Origin: Clostridia bacterium
GTDB taxonomy: Bacteria; Bacillota; Clostridia; UBA1381
Assembly: GCA_045603125.1 (NCBI GenBank)
Contig: JAZULN010000021.1
Coordinates: forward strand, 106 to 64,105
DNA length: 64,000 nt
Direction: 5' to 3'
The notes under the pieces were generated by a model that was not told where the DNA came from, did no database searches, and saw only the letters and a list, made by a program, of their open reading frames with translations. Below are positions 23,494-29,275 of the stretch, one piece after another. Each line of letters begins with the position of its first letter. The first letter of the stretch is position 1. A program made the translations under genes and the position numbers.

Positions 23494-25641
23494 CTATTCT
23501 GCTAATTCTACGTCAACTACAGTTATACCGTTTGGATGAATCTTTGTGGTGAAGTTTCCGTAAAGTTTGCCGATAGTTTCATCATCGTATTTATATCTGT
23601 AATCTACCTCGTCTGTAGTATTGCCGTATTTTACAGGTAATTGCGGATAGAAACTGACAACTTTTGCTTCTTTTATGCCGACTTTGGAATCGACACGGGC
23701 TCTTCTGTAAATTTCGCGTTCCGGATTATATAAATAAATTCTGTATTTGCCGTTGTTGAGTTTTAATGTGATGTTTGGACAATCAAGCTCGATGTGGTCA
23801 TTGAAGGTAGGACAAATGCTTGTAAGTGCCATGTTTTTATCGTTTGCATGCGCCAAAAGCATTGAATATGCTTTTATAAACCCTGTGGTGTGCTTAATAA
23901 ACGGAATTGTACCCGGAACGTGCCAGAACCAATCAGGTGTTTCGTCGATTGAGTATTCAGGCTCGGGTTCAATATCGGGAAGTGATAGACATTCCCTGAT
24001 TTTTGACATCATATCTGCCGATAGAGTTGTTCCCGAGGCAAATATGGTCATTGGGAATTTGGAATTCTTGTCGGTAAAGGACATATCACATTCAAGACCG
24101 TAAGGTGTCATATCAAAGCCCTCGGCAAAGGTCAAAACAAGCGGCCCGTTTTTATAGTCGGCAACTGCTTTTCTTTCATCTTCCGGTAAAAAGTCAAAGT
24201 TTGGAACAAATAATGTACCCTTCGAAGCTTTAATGTTTTCAATTCGGACAGTTCCGCCGAGAGGTGCACCGTGAATTCCTGCTTCATACATAAATTTATG
24301 TACCGACCAACGTCCTGTTTTTATAATTTCAGGAAGTGAATTATACATTGCCTTGTCTGACCATACAATTACCGGTGTTTCCACACTCAAAACATCGCTT
24401 GTATATGCAACCCGGAAGTGTTTTTTAATAAATGCCCACTCGTCAGCCTCGATTGAGTCGCCAAGACAAATCATTGTGCCGTCAGCAGCACGTTTGCAAC
24501 CGTCAGCGGTTACGTGTTGTTGACCAAGCAGGGTATACATATCTCTTTGGAAAAGACATGGCACGTGCTGGAGCATATCCCATTCTTCGGTGGAGTCTTT
24601 AACTCCCAGCATACAAAGTTGCTCATTGCCGTTTATGAATGCGGCATTCAAGGAAGCGGTTGACATATAACGCCAGAATTTATCACAAAAACCGCTCATA
24701 TAAACACTTGTGGGAAGAGTATTTGGCATGATGTAGTCAACACCGGCTTTGAATAGGTGTTGAAGGTCGATGCCGATTGAATATAGGGTTTCGAATGGGT
24801 CGGTACAATATACCGCCAAAGCAATAACCTTTTTATTGAGAGCATGAACGGCATCGCATACTTTTTTAAGGAATCTGTCCCAACGCCAAACGTGGAATAA
24901 AATCCATTGTTCTCTAACATTTTTCCAAATCCATTCGCCTCGGAATCCTACCATTTTATCATCGTCATCACCCATGGTTTTTGCAATCTCTTCAGGAAGT
25001 GTAATCCCTGAATAATCAAGGAACTGTTCTATAAATTCAGTAGAAAAATCACTGTCGTGAAGTATTCCGGCAGGACAGAAACAGTCTGACATCTGGAAGC
25101 CGTCGAAGTCATAGTCTACCAAAAGTTTTGAAAGCTTTTCTACCAAGAAATCCTCATAATATGTACCGTCTTTAAAACGCTTTAACACCATAAGACACTT
25201 CTTGCCGTCGGCTCTTGAATACTGGTGAAGCTCGGGGTGGTCGGTAATCCATTCACGGTGGAAGGTGTTATTATAAGATGCGCCTTGTACACTCAAATAT
25301 GCAGGAATTCCTGCTTTTTTAAGTTCTTTAACAGCACCCCTTAGGTCATATTTTGTCCAGGGCTGGCGTTCGTGAACTGTGTTTTGCGGTATAGCACAGT
25401 ATGAACAGTCATCGGGATGAAGTTCAAATTCGGTTTCCATGTCGGTGTGGTCATGGATTATGTCGGGATGGCAAAGGAACAGACAAACCCCGTCGGGTGT
25501 GCAGTTCATACGCTTTTTAAATTCGCCAACACCGTAGTCGGGTTGATTGCGGTCAAGACCCAAAAGCTGCATCCATATAAACATTTTGCCGTTATCAACA
25601 ATCGGCCTATCTATTTCGGGAATATTTTTAAAGTTATCCAT
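23494..25641 (-). CDS. Large uncharacterised cytoplasmic protein (about 715 aa), possibly glycoside-hydrolase-like
   Basis: No signal peptide or TM segment. The ATG at 25641 has GGAGG upstream. Aromatic/acidic-rich composition reminiscent of TIM-barrel glycosidases, but I recognise no family signature. Confidence 0.3.
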   Translation of the reverse strand: MDNFKNIPEIDRPIVDNGKMFIWMQLLGLDRNQPDYGVGEFKKRMNCTPDGVCLFLCHPDIIHDHTDMETEFELHPDDCSYCAIPQNTVHERQPWTKYDLRGAVKELKKAGIPAYLSVQGASYNNTFHREWITDHPELHQYSRADGKKCLMVLKRFKDGTYYEDFLVEKLSKLLVDYDFDGFQMSDCFCPAGILHDSDFSTEFIEQFLDYSGITLPEEIAKTMGDDDDKMVGFRGEWIWKNVREQWILFHVWRWDRFLKKVCDAVHALNKKVIALAVYCTDPFETLYSIGIDLQHLFKAGVDYIMPNTLPTSVYMSGFCDKFWRYMSTASLNAAFINGNEQLCMLGVKDSTEEWDMLQHVPCLFQRDMYTLLGQQHVTADGCKRAADGTMICLGDSIEADEWAFIKKHFRVAYTSDVLSVETPVIVWSDKAMYNSLPEIIKTGRWSVHKFMYEAGIHGAPLGGTVRIENIKASKGTLFVPNFDFLPEDERKAVADYKNGPLVLTFAEGFDMTPYGLECDMSFTDKNSKFPMTIFASGTTLSADMMSKIRECLSLPDIEPEPEYSIDETPDWFWHVPGTIPFIKHTTGFIKAYSMLLAHANDKNMALTSICPTFNDHIELDCPNITLKLNNGKYRIYLYNPEREIYRRARVDSKVGIKEAKVVSFYPQLPVKYGNTTDEVDYRYKYDDETIGKLYGNFTTKIHPNGITVVDVELAE

Positions 25642-25670
25642 AATGAAACCTCCTAGCATTTGATAAGTTA

Positions 25671-25699
25671 ATTATATTATAATGAAAAATCACTGTCAA
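25671..25699 (-). promoter_or_regulatory. Perfect-consensus sigma-A promoter for the 715-aa gene
   Basis: On the minus strand: TTGACA (25699-25694), exactly 17 nt, TATAAT (25676-25671). Confidence 0.65.
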
Positions 25700-25764
25700 C
25701 CATAAAATAATCTTTAAAAATACTGAAATATTCTTTACATATAATAATGAATACCGGTGGGGTT

Positions 25765-25814
25765 ATGATTATTTTAAAATTTTAGTTGAAATTTATCGTG
25801 GATGGTGGTATAAT
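25765..25814 (+). promoter_or_regulatory. Promoter module copy A (50-nt exact repeat)
   Basis: ATGATTATTTTAAAATTTTAGTTGAAATTTATCGTGGATGGTGGTATAAT, containing TTGAAA (25786-25791), 17 nt, and a TGG-extended TATAAT (25809-25814). Identical to 26498-26547. Confidence 0.7.
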
Positions 25815-25842
25815 GAGTTCAATCGTTTTACGATTAAACTCA

Positions 25843-26024
25843 GCGATATAAATTCCTTACGAAATTTGCGATATACCTTGTGGTGCGATATATCCTGACG
25901 GATGCGATATGTGCCTTCGGCACAAGAAAAAAGAATTTATATCATATCGCAATCGAATAAAATGAGGTTATATCGCATTTGAACGGAGTGAAAATATATC
26001 GCACGAACGAAGTGAGTATATCGC
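25843..26024 (+). repeat. Inverted 4+4 array of GCGATAT / ATATCGC with fully self-complementary spacers, in the 5' leader of the four-helix-bundle gene
   Basis: GCGATAT at 25843, 25868, 25885 and 25904. ATATCGC at 25944, 25970, 25996 and 26018. All seven spacers pair from first to last nucleotide. Confidence 0.85.
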
Positions 26025-26039
26025 TGGAAAGAGGTTATT

Positions 26040-26399
26040 ATGAACGATAAAACTATTAAAGAATTAGCAGTTGAATTAACCGTTGAAGTAACTGCGGTCT
26101 GTGATAGTATAAAAGGTAGAGCAGTATTTACAAATCAACTTTTGAGGTCTTGCTCGTCAATAGGTGCGAATTCACACGAAGCAAAATATGCACAGAGTAG
26201 GGCAGATTTTATACATAAACTTGAAATCGCTCTAAAAGAGTGTTTTGAAACAGAATATTGGTTAGAAATTTTATTCAAAGTAAATGCAATAGATAAGACA
26301 ATATATGATACTTTGAATAACAAGTGCGGAACAATTCGCAGAAAGCTGATAGCATCAGTTACAACTACAAAGAAAAATCAGGATAATAATAACATCTAA
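26040..26399 (+). CDS. Four-helix-bundle protein (23S rRNA intervening-sequence protein / Avd-like family)
   Basis: 119 aa. FTNQLLRSCSSIGANSHEA...SRADFIHKLEIALKECFETEYWLEIL matches the hallmark pattern of this family. Confidence 0.8.
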   Translation: MNDKTIKELAVELTVEVTAVCDSIKGRAVFTNQLLRSCSSIGANSHEAKYAQSRADFIHKLEIALKECFETEYWLEILFKVNAIDKTIYDTLNNKCGTIRRKLIASVTTTKKNQDNNNI

Positions 26400-26453
26400 A
26401 TCGTTCACTGATTCCATAATGAACTTGCCAAACACAGGGTCAAGTGTTTTTCG

Positions 26454-26483
26454 TGCATCAACTATCCGTTGGTGCATTTTTTT
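26454..26483 (+). terminator. Rho-independent terminator after the four-helix-bundle gene (module T1)
   Basis: TGCATCAAC-TATCC-GTTGGTGCA followed by T7. Confidence 0.7.
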
Positions 26484-26497
26484 AATTCAAAGAAGTA

Positions 26498-26547
26498 ATG
26501 ATTATTTTAAAATTTTAGTTGAAATTTATCGTGGATGGTGGTATAAT
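26498..26547 (+). promoter_or_regulatory. Promoter module copy B (50-nt exact repeat)
   Basis: Identical to 25765-25814. TTGAAA at 26519-26524 and TATAAT at 26542-26547. Confidence 0.7.
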
Positions 26548-26553
26548 AAGCTT

Positions 26554-26659
26554 GCCAAACACAATTTGATATTTAATTTATTAGTGTATGAACTTTTACC
26601 TAGGTAAAAGCACATACCCTATTTTTCATATGCTAATAAATTATGAAATTGTGTTTGGC
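26554..26659 (+). other. 106-nt extended hairpin in the leader of the 67-aa gene
   Basis: Four paired segments: GCCAAACACAATTT (26554-67) with AAATTGTGTTTGGC (26646-59), 14 bp; AATTTATTAG (26575-84) with CTAATAAATT (26633-42), 10 bp; GTATG with CATAC; and the apical 18-nt perfect palindrome CTTTTACCTAGGTAAAAG (26593-26610). Confidence 0.75.
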
Positions 26660-26681
26660 CACACGGGGAATGTGTTTTTCG

Positions 26682-26708
26682 TGCACAGGCTCTGCTTGTG
26701 CATTTTTT
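26682..26708 (+). terminator. Leader terminator (module T2) 8 nt upstream of the RBS of the 67-aa gene; putative attenuator
   Basis: TGCACAGGC-TCT-GCTTGTGCA followed by T6. Shares its flanks (GTGTTTTTCGTGCA ... TGCATTTTTTAATT) with T1. Confidence 0.65.
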
Positions 26709-26728
26709 AATTTATGGAGGTAAATGCT

Positions 26729-26932
26729 ATGAAAGAAATTTTAGAGAAACTCCCGGGGATAGGAGTAGATAAAGATAGGGTGAAGGTGATAGAGGATAAT
26801 GCTTTGCAAATAATAAAAGAAAGCGGATGCCTGATTGTTGGGAAAACAGGCGATGATGAGTATACGATAGTATCCATTCTGGAGGATAAAACCCAGGAAG
26901 AAGTATTAAAATATATTGATGAATATAAATAA
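26729..26932 (+). CDS. Hypothetical 67-aa acidic protein
   Basis: GGAGG (26716-20) sits 8 nt upstream of the ATG at 26729. Product begins MKEILEKLPGIGVDKDRVKV. No family recognised. Confidence 0.5.
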   Translation: MKEILEKLPGIGVDKDRVKVIEDNALQIIKESGCLIVGKTGDDEYTIVSILEDKTQEEVLKYIDEYK

Positions 26933-27086
26933 AAATCTTATAAAAGGGGATGTAAAAAAAGTCCAGACCACAAAACGAAAGTAATATATAGAAAAATCTG
27001 AATTTTTCAATTTTTTTTATAATTTTATTCGTTTTGCTATAAAAAATATAGTCACTCGGCGTACCATTGTACGCTGTCGGATAACC

Positions 27087-27112
27087 AAAAGCAAGGCATA
27101 TGCCTTGCTTTT
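27087..27112. terminator. Bidirectional terminator-like palindrome
   Basis: AAAAGCAAGGCATATGCCTTGCTTTT. Confidence 0.6.
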
Positions 27113-27180
27113 GCTATATTTTTTCATTCTGAAACATTTTTTCCTATCCCCACAAAAAGGGGATGTAAATTATTACGTAA

Positions 27181-27220
27181 ATAAAAAGAACTATCTAAGC
27201 TGAGTGCTTAAATAGTTCTT
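27181..27220 (-). terminator. rpsT terminator
   Basis: AGAACTAT-CTAAGC..GCTTAA-ATAGTTCT stem of about 13 bp, with a T-run on the minus strand. Confidence 0.7.
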
Positions 27221-27224
27221 CTGA

Positions 27225-27491
27225 TTAGCCGTTTACTTTAGCCAACTTCACTGCAAGCTGTGATTTCTTTCTTGCAGCTTTGTTCTTGTGGATTATTCCG
27301 TGGCTTACGCCTTGGTCTAATTTCTTTGTTGCTTCGTTAAACAATGCCTTTACGTTTGCTGTGTCGTTTGCATCAACTGCTGCTTCAAACTTCTTAATAG
27401 CAGTCTTCAAAGCAGTTCTGTGCATTTGGTTGATAAGAGTCTTCTTTTCAATTACCTTAACACGCTTTTTTGCTGATTTAATGTTAGGCAC
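27225..27491 (-). CDS. rpsT: 30S ribosomal protein S20
   Basis: (GTG)[20 protein letters not shown]. The GTG start at 27491 has GGAGGTGG upstream. The tracked 27560 start adds a non-homologous extension. Confidence 0.9.
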
Positions 27492-27674
27492 AATTTCCAC
27501 CTCCAAATAGTTTAATACATAATACCGTAATATTCTACCACAGAAAATATAAAAAATCAAGTGCTTTTTTAAAAAAAATTAAAAATTTTTTATCCCGTTG
27601 AATTTGGGCGTTTTAGCATAAAAACTTTTTCTTTGGAATAGATATAATCTGTGACAATTTAAGGAGGAGAGAAT

Positions 27675-28295
27675 ATGGAAAACTATACATTTAATAATAG
27701 TGCTGAAATCTGGGGGCGTGTCGGTGGGGATTTTGAGTTTAGTCATGAAATTTACGGTGAGAAATTTTATATCTTCACTCTTGACGTCCCAAGACTTTCA
27801 GGGACTTTTGATAAGATAAAGGTTATGATTTCGGAAAGACTTATCCCTGAGGGAGAACTAGAAGATGGAGAAATTTTAAAGGTTATAGGACAGTTTCGGT
27901 CATATAACAGCTTTGAAAATGGTACAAATAGACTTATCCTTACGGTTTTTGCCAGGGACATCATAAAAGATGCCCCTGAGGAGGATAACCCGAATAGCAT
28001 TTATCTAAACGGGTACATATGTAAGGAGCCAATCTACCGGACCACGCCCTTTGGCAGGGAAATCACCGATATGCTTTTGGCGGTAAACAGAACCTATAAC
28101 AAATCCGATTATATTCCGGTTATTGCCTGGGGTAGAAATGCCAGGTTCTGCCAAAATCTCGGGGTAGGTGAGAATGTAAGGATCTGGGGCAGGATTCAGT
28201 CAAGAGATTATCAGAAAAAGCTTGATGATGATACAGTAATTACTAAAACCGCCTATGAGGTGTCGATTAGTAAGCTAGAGGTTGGGGAAAATTAA
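27675..28295 (+). CDS. SSB-like protein with two OB-fold-like halves and no acidic C-terminal tail
   Basis: The C-terminal half (IPVIAWGRNARFCQNLGVGENVRIWGRIQSRDYQKK) looks like an SSB OB fold. The N-terminal half is more divergent. Confidence 0.5.
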   Translation: MENYTFNNSAEIWGRVGGDFEFSHEIYGEKFYIFTLDVPRLSGTFDKIKVMISERLIPEGELEDGEILKVIGQFRSYNSFENGTNRLILTVFARDIIKDAPEEDNPNSIYLNGYICKEPIYRTTPFGREITDMLLAVNRTYNKSDYIPVIAWGRNARFCQNLGVGENVRIWGRIQSRDYQKKLDDDTVITKTAYEVSISKLEVGEN

Positions 28296-28325
28296 AAAGG
28301 AGTCCGCTTTAGCGGACTCCTTTTT
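28294..28325. terminator. Bidirectional terminator between the SSB-like gene and ldh
   Basis: AAAAAGGAGTCCGC-TTTA-GCGGACTCCTTTTT. Confidence 0.8.
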
Positions 28326-28330
28326 AATTT

Positions 28331-29275
28331 TTATAGCCCCATCTCACGAATCTGCTCTTTTAAAACATCTGCCGAGTTTCTTAAGCCCTTCATCTCTTCC
28401 CGGCTAAAGGGGACTTCTAATATTTTTTCTATTCCTTCACCGCCGACCTTTGTAGGTACAGACAATGCAACGTCTTCTAAACCGTATTCACCCTCAAAGA
28501 TACTGGAAACTGTAAGAATTGAATTTTCGTCACCTGCTATACATTCAACTATCCTTGCAACAGCCACGGCAATTGCATAGTATGTGGCACCCTTCTTTTT
28601 TATGATTTCATATGCCGAGTTTTTGACTTCTTCATACATTTGGTTTAAGTCGTCCAAGTTGCATTTTCCGGTGTAGCGGCAAAATTCGTGCATGGAAAGT
28701 CCGCCGATGTTGGTGATGCTCCATGCTGCGACCTCGCTGTCGCCGTGTTCACCTATTATATAGGTATGGCAGTTTCTGGCATCTATCCCTGTTTTCTTAC
28801 TTATTAAATATTTGAGTCGGGCAGTATCCAAAACCGTGCCGGAGCCGAGAATCTGATTTTTGGGAAGCCCCGATATCTTAAAGGTTGCATAGGTTAAGAT
28901 GTCCACAGGGTTTGTGACGGTAAGAAGAATTAAATCGTCGCTTGCAAATTTCATTACATTCTCGGTCACCGACTTTATAACCGACACGTTCCGCTTTAGA
29001 AGGTCAAGGCGGGTTTCGTCGGGCTTTTGTTGGGAAACTCCGGCGGTAATTATCACAATATCTGCATCTTTACAGTCGGAATAATCCCCGGCATAGACCT
29101 TGACCGGTTTTACCAAAGACACTCCGTGGGCGATATCTAAGGCATCACCCTCCGCCTTTTCTTTTTGAATATCGATTATTACAATCTCTGAAAAAAGTCC
29201 GCCGAGCATTATGGTAAAGGCGGTGGTCGACCCGACAAAGCCGTCGCCTACAATTACTAGTTTTCCTCTGAACAT
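28331..29275 (-). CDS. ldh: L-lactate dehydrogenase
   Basis: NAD-binding KLVIVGDGFVGST, the IGEHGDSE active-site loop, and a length of 314 aa. Confidence 0.9.
   Translation of the reverse strand: MFRGKLVIVGDGFVGSTTAFTIMLGGLFSEIVIIDIQKEKAEGDALDIAHGVSLVKPVKVYAGDYSDCKDADIVIITAGVSQQKPDETRLDLLKRNVSVIKSVTENVMKFASDDLILLTVTNPVDILTYATFKISGLPKNQILGSGTVLDTARLKYLISKKTGIDARNCHTYIIGEHGDSEVAAWSITNIGGLSMHEFCRYTGKCNLDDLNQMYEEVKNSAYEIIKKKGATYYAIAVAVARIVECIAGDENSILTVSSIFEGEYGLEDVALSVPTKVGGEGIEKILEVPFSREEMKGLRNSADVLKEQIREMGL

Follow-up and report, generated by a model that had tools for sequence, protein, structure and literature searches.

The closest described systems are transcription attenuators of Firmicutes, namely the S-box (SAM-I) riboswitch, the PyrR-controlled pyr attenuators and the T-box. 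They place three mutually exclusive helices in a 5′ leader before the ribosome-binding site (RBS). The antiterminator engages the 5′ strand of the terminator, an upstream helix removes the other strand of the antiterminator, and a U-run pause site lies ahead of the terminator. The leader family described here appears to follow the same plan. It differs from these attenuators in that no Rfam aptamer or leader model matches it. In addition, its anti-antiterminator strand forms the tip of a rod of 100-170 nt with a freely varying interior, and about 19 copies per genome stand before unrelated accessory genes and not before the genes of one pathway.

In Clostridia, a single genome can carry many c-di-GMP-I (GEMM-I) riboswitches, which stand before surface, envelope and uncharacterised genes. 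The rod leaders are similarly present in many copies per genome before such genes, but their fold is different and they have no match to RF01051. Another likeness is to sRNA-Xcc1 (RF02221), also a short RNA with a defined structure, which has a promoter and a terminator of its own and is tied to gene cassettes. No RF02221 match was obtained at E <= 10 for the leader studied here or at E <= 1 for eight typical units, which sets the rod leaders apart from it. Integron attC sites, MITEs and the 'putative mobile promoters' of PMC3575422 share other traits with the family. They are imperfect palindromes in which the ends are conserved and the middle varies, they stand before accessory genes in many copies, and promoter-bearing modules are reused. 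Unlike attC sites and MITEs, the rods pair in a strand-specific manner at the RNA level, the promoter and tail are conserved outside the palindrome, and long-range covariation ties the rods to the tail.

We analyzed the leader of a 67-aa gene in the window, a 64,000-nt stretch of DNA from a Clostridia bacterium. As judged by its sequence, this leader is one copy of a multicopy promoter-rod-tail-terminator leader family found in Clostridia of gut and rumen. It is of the transcription-attenuation kind, and as a family it has no Rfam 15 model and no description in the literature searched. With moderate confidence, we propose that each unit is self-contained and operates by a terminator, antiterminator and anti-antiterminator logic, and that the window copy is a recombinant that would terminate mostly by default.

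The leader of the 67-aa gene

The locus carries the following features, all on the forward strand.

25762-25817 (+), promoter copy A: -35 box at 25786-25791 and -10 box at 25809-25814, an 11/12 match with TG
26413-26486 (+), unit 1, a rod-less leader remnant: -10 remnant CATAAT, 5′ strand of the basal rod helix P1, tail-like stretch, terminator and T-run
26495-26550 (+), promoter copy B: -35 box TTGAAA at 26519-26524, 17-nt spacer, TG at 26539-26540 and -10 box TATAAT at 26542-26547
26554-26659 (+), rod of the short-rod class, 106 nt, with a predicted fold of 14 bp, 3 bp, 17 bp and a 7-bp apical hairpin
26605-26621 (+), apex strand X, UAAAAGCACAUACCCUA: 3′ strand of the apical hairpin and start of the bulge, complementary to X′b
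26661-26675 (+), small hairpin ACACG / UGUGU around GGGAA, a predicted fold specific to the window copy
26664-26679 (+), tail segment X′b, CGGGGAAUGUGUUUUU: predicted to pair with X (anti-antiterminator) or with the terminator 5′ strand (antiterminator)
26665-26675 with 26683-26693 (+), weak antiterminator of the window copy: 9 bp with a 2x2 internal loop
26681-26708 (+), intrinsic terminator: 10-bp stem at 26681-26703, UCU loop and U6 (T-run 26703-26708)
26716-26932 (+), RBS GGAGG at 26716-26720, 7 nt after the end of the T-run, and the 67-aa ORF at 26729-26932 (ATG at 26729)

An earlier note on this DNA had described a promoter, a 106-nt rod, a small hairpin and a terminator, and all of these are present where it placed them. 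It also had the terminator just before the RBS, which is correct, although the distance is 7 nt and not 8. Promoter copies A and B are the two best matches of a promoter scan of 25700-27250, each with 11/12 consensus positions, and copy B (26519-26547) is TG-extended. The core of copy A (25786-25814) is identical to that of copy B (26519-26547), and both copies lie in a 56-nt duplication (25762-25817 and 26495-26550) with 96% identity. The putative promoter copy A now drives a Gut-1-like RNA and a PF05635 four-helix-bundle gene.

The -10 box of copy B (TATAAT, 26542-26547) ends 6 nt before the rod, which starts at 26554. The basal helix P1 pairs 26554-26567 with 26646-26659 over 14 bp (GCCAAACACAATTT / AAATTGTGTTTGGC) and fits the closing signature of the family, GCYAAAC... 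/ ...GTTTRGC. Further features of the predicted fold are an internal loop, GAUAUU, an apical hairpin and a 3′ bulge of 14 nt. The apex fits the family motif (U)AAAA(A)nGCA; the 3′ bulge after it is rich in pyrimidines, and the two are complementary to the tail. The rod alone is more stable in the sense than in the antisense direction (-41.3 vs -36.2 kcal/mol). The minimum free energy (MFE) of the whole leader (26548-26740) is -63.6 kcal/mol compared to -37.3 +/- 4.0 for shuffled sequences (z -6.57; 0/200 shuffles as good). The chance expectation in this region is only 0.5 terminator-like sites. The tail fits the strict pattern of the family, which consists of TGYGTTTTT, the terminator and GCATTTTTT.

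The duplex between X (26605-26621) and X′b (26664-26679) is worth -16.7 kcal/mol, and its differences from the family consensus are compensated: a change from GCAAAU to GCACAU in X is answered by a change from GUUUGC to AUGUGU in X′b. When the 3′ strand of the terminator is blocked, the leader folds at -52.4 kcal/mol compared with -59.5 for the terminator fold, a gap of about 7. Pairing of the linker with the terminator 3′ strand yields -8.8 kcal/mol against -16.3 for the terminator. Because its antiterminator is weak, the window copy is predicted to be mostly terminated. It probably terminates by default in most transcripts, with the 67-aa gene expressed by read-through, and the folding energies suggest that it may be incapable of switching. 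We regard the window copy as a divergent, somewhat degenerate and recombinant member of the family.

The 67-aa protein is an orphan. It has no Pfam family and no lead in the protein atlas, and only 4 clusters of it are found among 5.8 billion proteins. No promoter lies between terminator and RBS, either at the window locus or in the family units. Two paralogs are encoded in the same genome, on contigs C76 and C60. The leader of the C76 paralog has the family architecture (z -6.9), and the C60 paralog is without a leader of this family. Homologues in four other assemblies (loci L153-L156) have a family leader in front. The conservation of the leader before homologues of the gene, whose lack would have refuted the reading of the earlier note, is therefore borne out at L153-L156 and C76, with C60 as an exception.

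A leader family with unrelated rods

A blastn search of the window's own genome with the leader returned no further copy. Such a search is blind to other copies because the rods are unrelated, and a tail profile for nhmmer is needed to find them. With that profile, about 19 copies are found in the 1.79-Mb, 86%-complete genome, and the window copy is the eighth-best of them (32 bits, E 1e-7). When relatives were searched at the DNA level, a stretch matching the leader at 70% turned up at L027, in another family of the same order, where the leader (z -5.8) precedes a lipoprotein-like gene. The C76 and L027 units both have the -10 box, the 6-nt spacing, a rod bounded by GCYAAAC...GTTTRGC, the conserved tail, the terminator and the RBS. 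The interiors of their rods are unrelated in sequence, and the base helix is compensated.

The strict tail pattern has at least 118 matches in contigs sampled at one genome per species, where a rough estimate puts the chance expectation at about 10. It is present in 16 of 61 relatives, and the reversed control gave 0 matches. Among the matches listed, nearly all are metagenome-assembled genomes (MAGs) of gut and rumen Clostridia, with labels such as Oscillospiraceae, Acutalibacteraceae, Christensenellaceae, Ca. Scatosoma, Ca. Fimenecus, 'Eubacterium sp.' and similar. Only one match was found in 2.9 million viral contigs, and a phage origin of the family was rejected on this ground. The Rfam 15 models, including T-box, SAM-I, c-di-GMP-I/II, sRNA-Xcc1 and 6S, gave no match on the leader in a search of window positions 24000-29000 at E <= 10. 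Eight typical units gave none at E <= 1 except two chance-level overlaps. The same search scored T-box, tRNA and RNase P models elsewhere, which indicates that it was sensitive. The literature, searched by sequence words and by topic, contained no description of the family; the unnamed candidates in the supplement of PMC8040213 lay outside this comparison.

The anatomy of the units was determined from 73 of 80 pattern loci together with the own-genome copies. The tail sequence served to choose the pattern loci, and a rod had to form at least 12 of 14 basal pairs to be retained, so that some of the counts are partly circular. The units have a strong promoter of the sigma-A type. Of 72 units, 54 have a -10-like box whose end is 6 nt away from the rod, and in 7 others the distance is 7 nt (61/72). 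The TG extension is found in 56 of the 72, and a TTGnnn -35 box in 48. From this promoter spacing, transcription across the family appears to start at the first base of the rod. The rods are 102-170 nt long (median 146) and form a short and a long class. The first 12 bp of P1 are paired in 72/72 units, a count made partly circular by the pre-filter of at least 12/14 basal pairs. P1 covaries, and its positions 8 and 10-12 each show 4-5 pair types. Variants of the rod base within the window's own genome include GCGAAAC/GTTTCGC, CCACAT/ATGTGG and GTCACAT/GTGTGAC. The interiors of the rods pair in every case, although their sequences are unrelated. Few unpaired positions are conserved; these are AAUAU in 53 of 72 units and the 3′ bulge. 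The tail is conserved over about 55 nt and ends in an intrinsic terminator, and the RBS of an accessory gene follows a few bases later. In most units this RBS lies 5-25 nt after the U-run, and the gene has no promoter of its own.

The genes behind the units are heterogeneous. They encode zinc-ribbon proteins (5), BspA-type LRR proteins (3), and two each of Band_7_1, CHAP, ricin lectin, MazE/AbrB-like and YpsA-SLOG proteins. A superinfection-immunity protein, DUF805, DUF4236, many lipoproteins and tiny orphans are also encoded there. The commonest gene behind the leader belongs to a 40-60-aa family, M(P)DYKxLYFxLFNxITDxIExL, with an acidic tail. Four copies of this small protein are encoded in the window's own genome (C76:32218-32364, C43:174-308, C19:8005-8127 and C40:15427-15597), and it is present also at L065, L084, L096, L098 and L107. 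It has no Pfam family, and its atlas matches are only to 'hypothetical protein' clusters of Bacillota.

Several units adjoin tRNA arrays or the RNase P RNA gene (L059:1991-2872, L067:1326-1814 and L031:2312-2711). The L031 stretch (2312-2711) has the look of a structured RNA, and L067 has Gut-1-like matches beside tRNAs.

In these genomes, about one gene per 100 kb is under the control of one RNA design, or at least stands behind it. The design recurs at no fewer than 118 places that are almost all in gut and rumen Clostridia MAGs without genetics. The genes concerned form an accessory layer of surface LRR and CHAP proteins, lipoproteins, zinc-ribbon membrane proteins, SPFH and SLOG proteins, a superinfection-immunity protein and tiny orphans. 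The family deserves a covariance model for annotation; otherwise these 200-nt units pass as empty intergenic DNA.

Competing helices and alternative readings

Covariation within the leader family supports four helices: the rod, the terminator, an antiterminator and a 15-17-bp pairing between rod apex and tail. In the alignment of the terminator, 93.5% of cells are paired and 53 are double-change cells, and 0/500 shuffles are as good. The predicted antiterminator is formed by the linker and X′b with the end of the terminator 5′ strand, the UUCG loop and the upper 3′ strand. Its 14 pairs are formed in 90.1% of cells with 38 double-change cells (15.6 in shuffles), and slid controls are paired in 23-56%. 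Shuffles were as good in 0/500 cases on three of five measures and in 36/500 and 56/500 on the other two; where the sequences are related, this control is not a probability. The lower helix alone covaries too. The covariation in favor of the antiterminator is moderate. The terminator 3′ strand carries G and U where two different partners must be matched.

The apex strand X of the family, AAAAAUGCAnnnUCC, comprises the 3′ strand of the apical hairpin and the conserved 3′ bulge, and it is complementary to X′b, GGAGnnnUGCGUUUUU. The mean energy of the X:X′b duplex is -18.2 kcal/mol within a unit, -15.9 across copies and -10.3 with shuffled tails, and the self duplex is better than the cross duplex in 73 of 86 units. 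The apex-tail helix can be formed in 71/71 aligned units with 15-17 bp, in pairs picked by the duplex optimum, and A.U to G.C exchanges occur at no fewer than five columns. When the rod is kept closed, 61 of 86 units have the antiterminator as their MFE fold, which leaves GCGCA and the U-run unpaired. In the other 25, the window copy included, it is the terminator.

Two other candidates were tried and rejected. A classic antiterminator, in which the rod would pair with a terminator strand, gives no self-versus-cross signal and no covariation of the terminator strands with the rod. A five-codon mini-ORF in the consensus terminator (AUG CGU CUG CUU CGG UAG) was dropped on inspection; its start codon is unconserved and the GGAG is too distant.

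At the family level, a conditional terminator is the best reading of these sequence and folding data. Free X′b would, together with the linker, pair with the terminator strands, and this antiterminator would permit read-through. Capture of X′b by the rod-apex strand X would act as an anti-antiterminator and free the terminator to form. A closed rod would lock X in the apical hairpin, so that an opener of the rod apex or an outside source of X would decide the outcome. X lies at the top of a stem of 35-60 bp, and a linker of only about 8 nt separates the foot of this stem from X′b. So short a linker does not allow the apex-tail helix to form while the rod is closed, and the rod is completed before the tail is made. 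Hence an opener or an action in trans is required. Candidate openers would be a protein, a helicase, a cut by RNase III or a ligand; alternatively, X could come from another molecule. No RNA run was found to contain the DNA of the window. When sheep-gut metatranscriptome contigs were compared with a rumen copy, a single, uninformative contig of 216 nt matched; it covers an L044-like tail and continues 125 nt past the terminator, and DNA carry-over is possible. The earlier note had proposed an attenuator or riboswitch-like leader: the conserved structured leader and, at the family level, the conditional terminator stand, while the covarying alternative helices are different from those it had proposed.

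A bolder form of this reading is a new class of RNA sensor. The apex-tail pairing would be gated by a small signalling molecule at the conserved internal loop or bulge, or by sister rods that act in trans on nascent tails, which would create a self-referential regulon of about 20 envelope, zinc-ribbon and small-protein genes per genome in uncultured gut Clostridia. We regard this as a speculative and rather unlikely possibility. Should the switch be real, finding what triggers it would reveal a new regulon and perhaps also a new riboswitch or RNA-binding regulator.

The units could also be independent small RNA genes. Each would give rise to a stable rod RNA, about 170-230 nt long and stopped by the terminator of the unit, that works by itself, in trans or as a protein decoy, and the gene behind it would receive low constitutive read-through. 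Each unit indeed has its own promoter and a good terminator, and tandem units terminate without a gene in between. Three own-genome units lead into more non-coding hairpins, the default fold of the window copy is the terminator, and the apex-tail duplexes across copies nearly match those within a unit (-15.9 vs -18.2 kcal/mol). However, the promoterless genes with an RBS 5-25 nt past the U-run of most units need read-through, the antiterminator covariation is hard to square with the plain terminator of a small RNA, and the antiterminator is the predicted fold of the 61 units mentioned above. We therefore judge small RNA genes to be an unlikely explanation, though one that deserves to be kept in mind.

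The own-genome units that lead into hairpins (C36:65770+, C76:10584- and C104:13332+) form one sub-type with no RBS behind. In this sub-type, 1-4 tandem hairpins on CCAAATCnnnGATTTGG stand behind the unit and are followed by a terminator. Palindromes of the CCAAATCnnnGATTTGG type number 17 in the genome.

A further alternative is a repeat that acts at the DNA level, either a MITE- or attC-like mobile palindrome with the ends GCCAAAC...GTTTGGC or a 'mobile promoter' cassette, with the RNA folds being incidental. Integron attC core sites have the form RYYYAAC / GTTRRRY, which the rod ends resemble. The family is multicopy and patchy among relatives and stands before accessory genes, and near-identical promoter and terminator flanks surround unrelated rods, with recombination between units. 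Promoter reuse has a precedent in the 'putative mobile promoters' of PMC3575422. A DNA palindrome is argued against by the strand bias of the rods, since the sense strand is more stable than the antisense strand in 83 of 87 rods, by a mean of 11.4 kcal/mol, and G.U pairs favor it (5.4 per rod in sense vs 1.4 in antisense). Other observations against this alternative are that unrelated rod interiors always pair, that the promoter spacing is fixed outside the palindrome, and that the long-range helices covary within the transcript. Moreover, cassette arrays are absent, the ORFs listed near the loci examined include no integrase, and viral contigs gave only the single match. For identity with integron attC sites in particular, both sides of the core deviate at position 4, the fold favors the transcribed strand and not bottom-strand folding, and the units are dispersed or in promoter-bearing tandems, again with no integrase among the ORFs listed around the locus; this identity was rejected. 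Taken as a whole, a DNA-level repeat is improbable.

The weakest alternative is the switch of the earlier note, in which GCCAAACAC would alternate between the distal GTGTTTGGC of the rod and the GTGTT of the small hairpin (26672-26676) and so decide termination; the pairing is possible in the window copy, but five bp are no competitor for the 14-bp P1, no terminator strand covaries with the rod, the base-helix variants GCGAAAC/GTTTCGC and CCACAT/ATGTGG are not followed by the tail (by inspection, with no formal count), and the small hairpin is unconserved in the window register (A3 alignment, by inspection) and shows no covariation as a 4-bp helix in the family register, which removed it as a family feature, so that we give this switch hardly any credence.

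History of the locus and neighboring repeats

Unit 1 consists of a P1 5′ strand, GCCAAACACA (26427-26436), a tail-like part, GGGTCAAGTGTTTTT (26437-26451), and a terminator at 26453-26477. It lies behind the PF05635 four-helix-bundle gene and serves as the terminator of that gene. Its tail gives a partial nhmmer match of 15.6 bits to the family tail model. The earlier note had recognized a module shared between this site (26424-26483) and the leader. The module is real (repeat families D3-D6) and its stem interiors are compensated as described there; it is not a designed pair. What lies at 26424-26483 is left over from a tandem copy of this leader unit that has no rod.

Orthologous loci were located via the few homologues of the 67-aa protein. 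At L153, the order is SpoVT, one long-rod unit and the homologue of the 67-aa gene. In the sister strains at L154-L156, it is the four-helix-bundle gene, a rod-less unit 1 like that of the window, unit 2, a third promoter copy, unit 3 and the gene. Three tandem promoter-leader units thus precede the 67-aa gene at L154:1907-2500, as they do at L155 and L156. Unit 2 carries the rod of the window and unit 3 carries the long rod of L153. The two units have near-identical promoters, an identical terminator and RBS, and unrelated rods. In comparison with L154-L156, promoter 3 and rod 3 are absent from the window, and the junction lies within the common terminator. From this comparison, the window copy is best explained by a deletion through recombination between the identical terminators of units 2 and 3. 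Such a deletion would leave the rod of unit 2 fused to the 67-aa gene. Conserved flanks around rods that are free to vary would make the unit a natural recombination module, and gain and loss of whole units between strains is visible at this locus. The side of rpsT that faces the leader differs in each of three same-genus species, and none of the three has a leader unit next to rpsT. A second tandem pair of units is found in the window's own genome at C40:15189 and C40:15387.

The GCGATAT-unit leader (25818-26039) and the PF05635 four-helix-bundle gene form a cassette (25805-26413) that is 87% identical in the genome of another family (G045). The GCGATAT leader part alone is multicopy in the window's own genome and in many related genomes, often at contig ends, and a weak Gut-1 (RF01706) match of 22.5 bits lies at 25841-25935. 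The cassette stands between promoter copy A and the rod-less unit, with ATAATGA(G/A) on both sides, and it looks like an insertion just past the -10 box of a unit. On the other side of the leader, a stretch of about 35 nt at 26942-26975 (AAAAGGGGATGTAAAAAAAGTCCAGACC...) has dozens of near-identical copies in the genomes of relatives, and a 15-nt half-copy of it (D10) is found 213 nt downstream, at 27155-27169.
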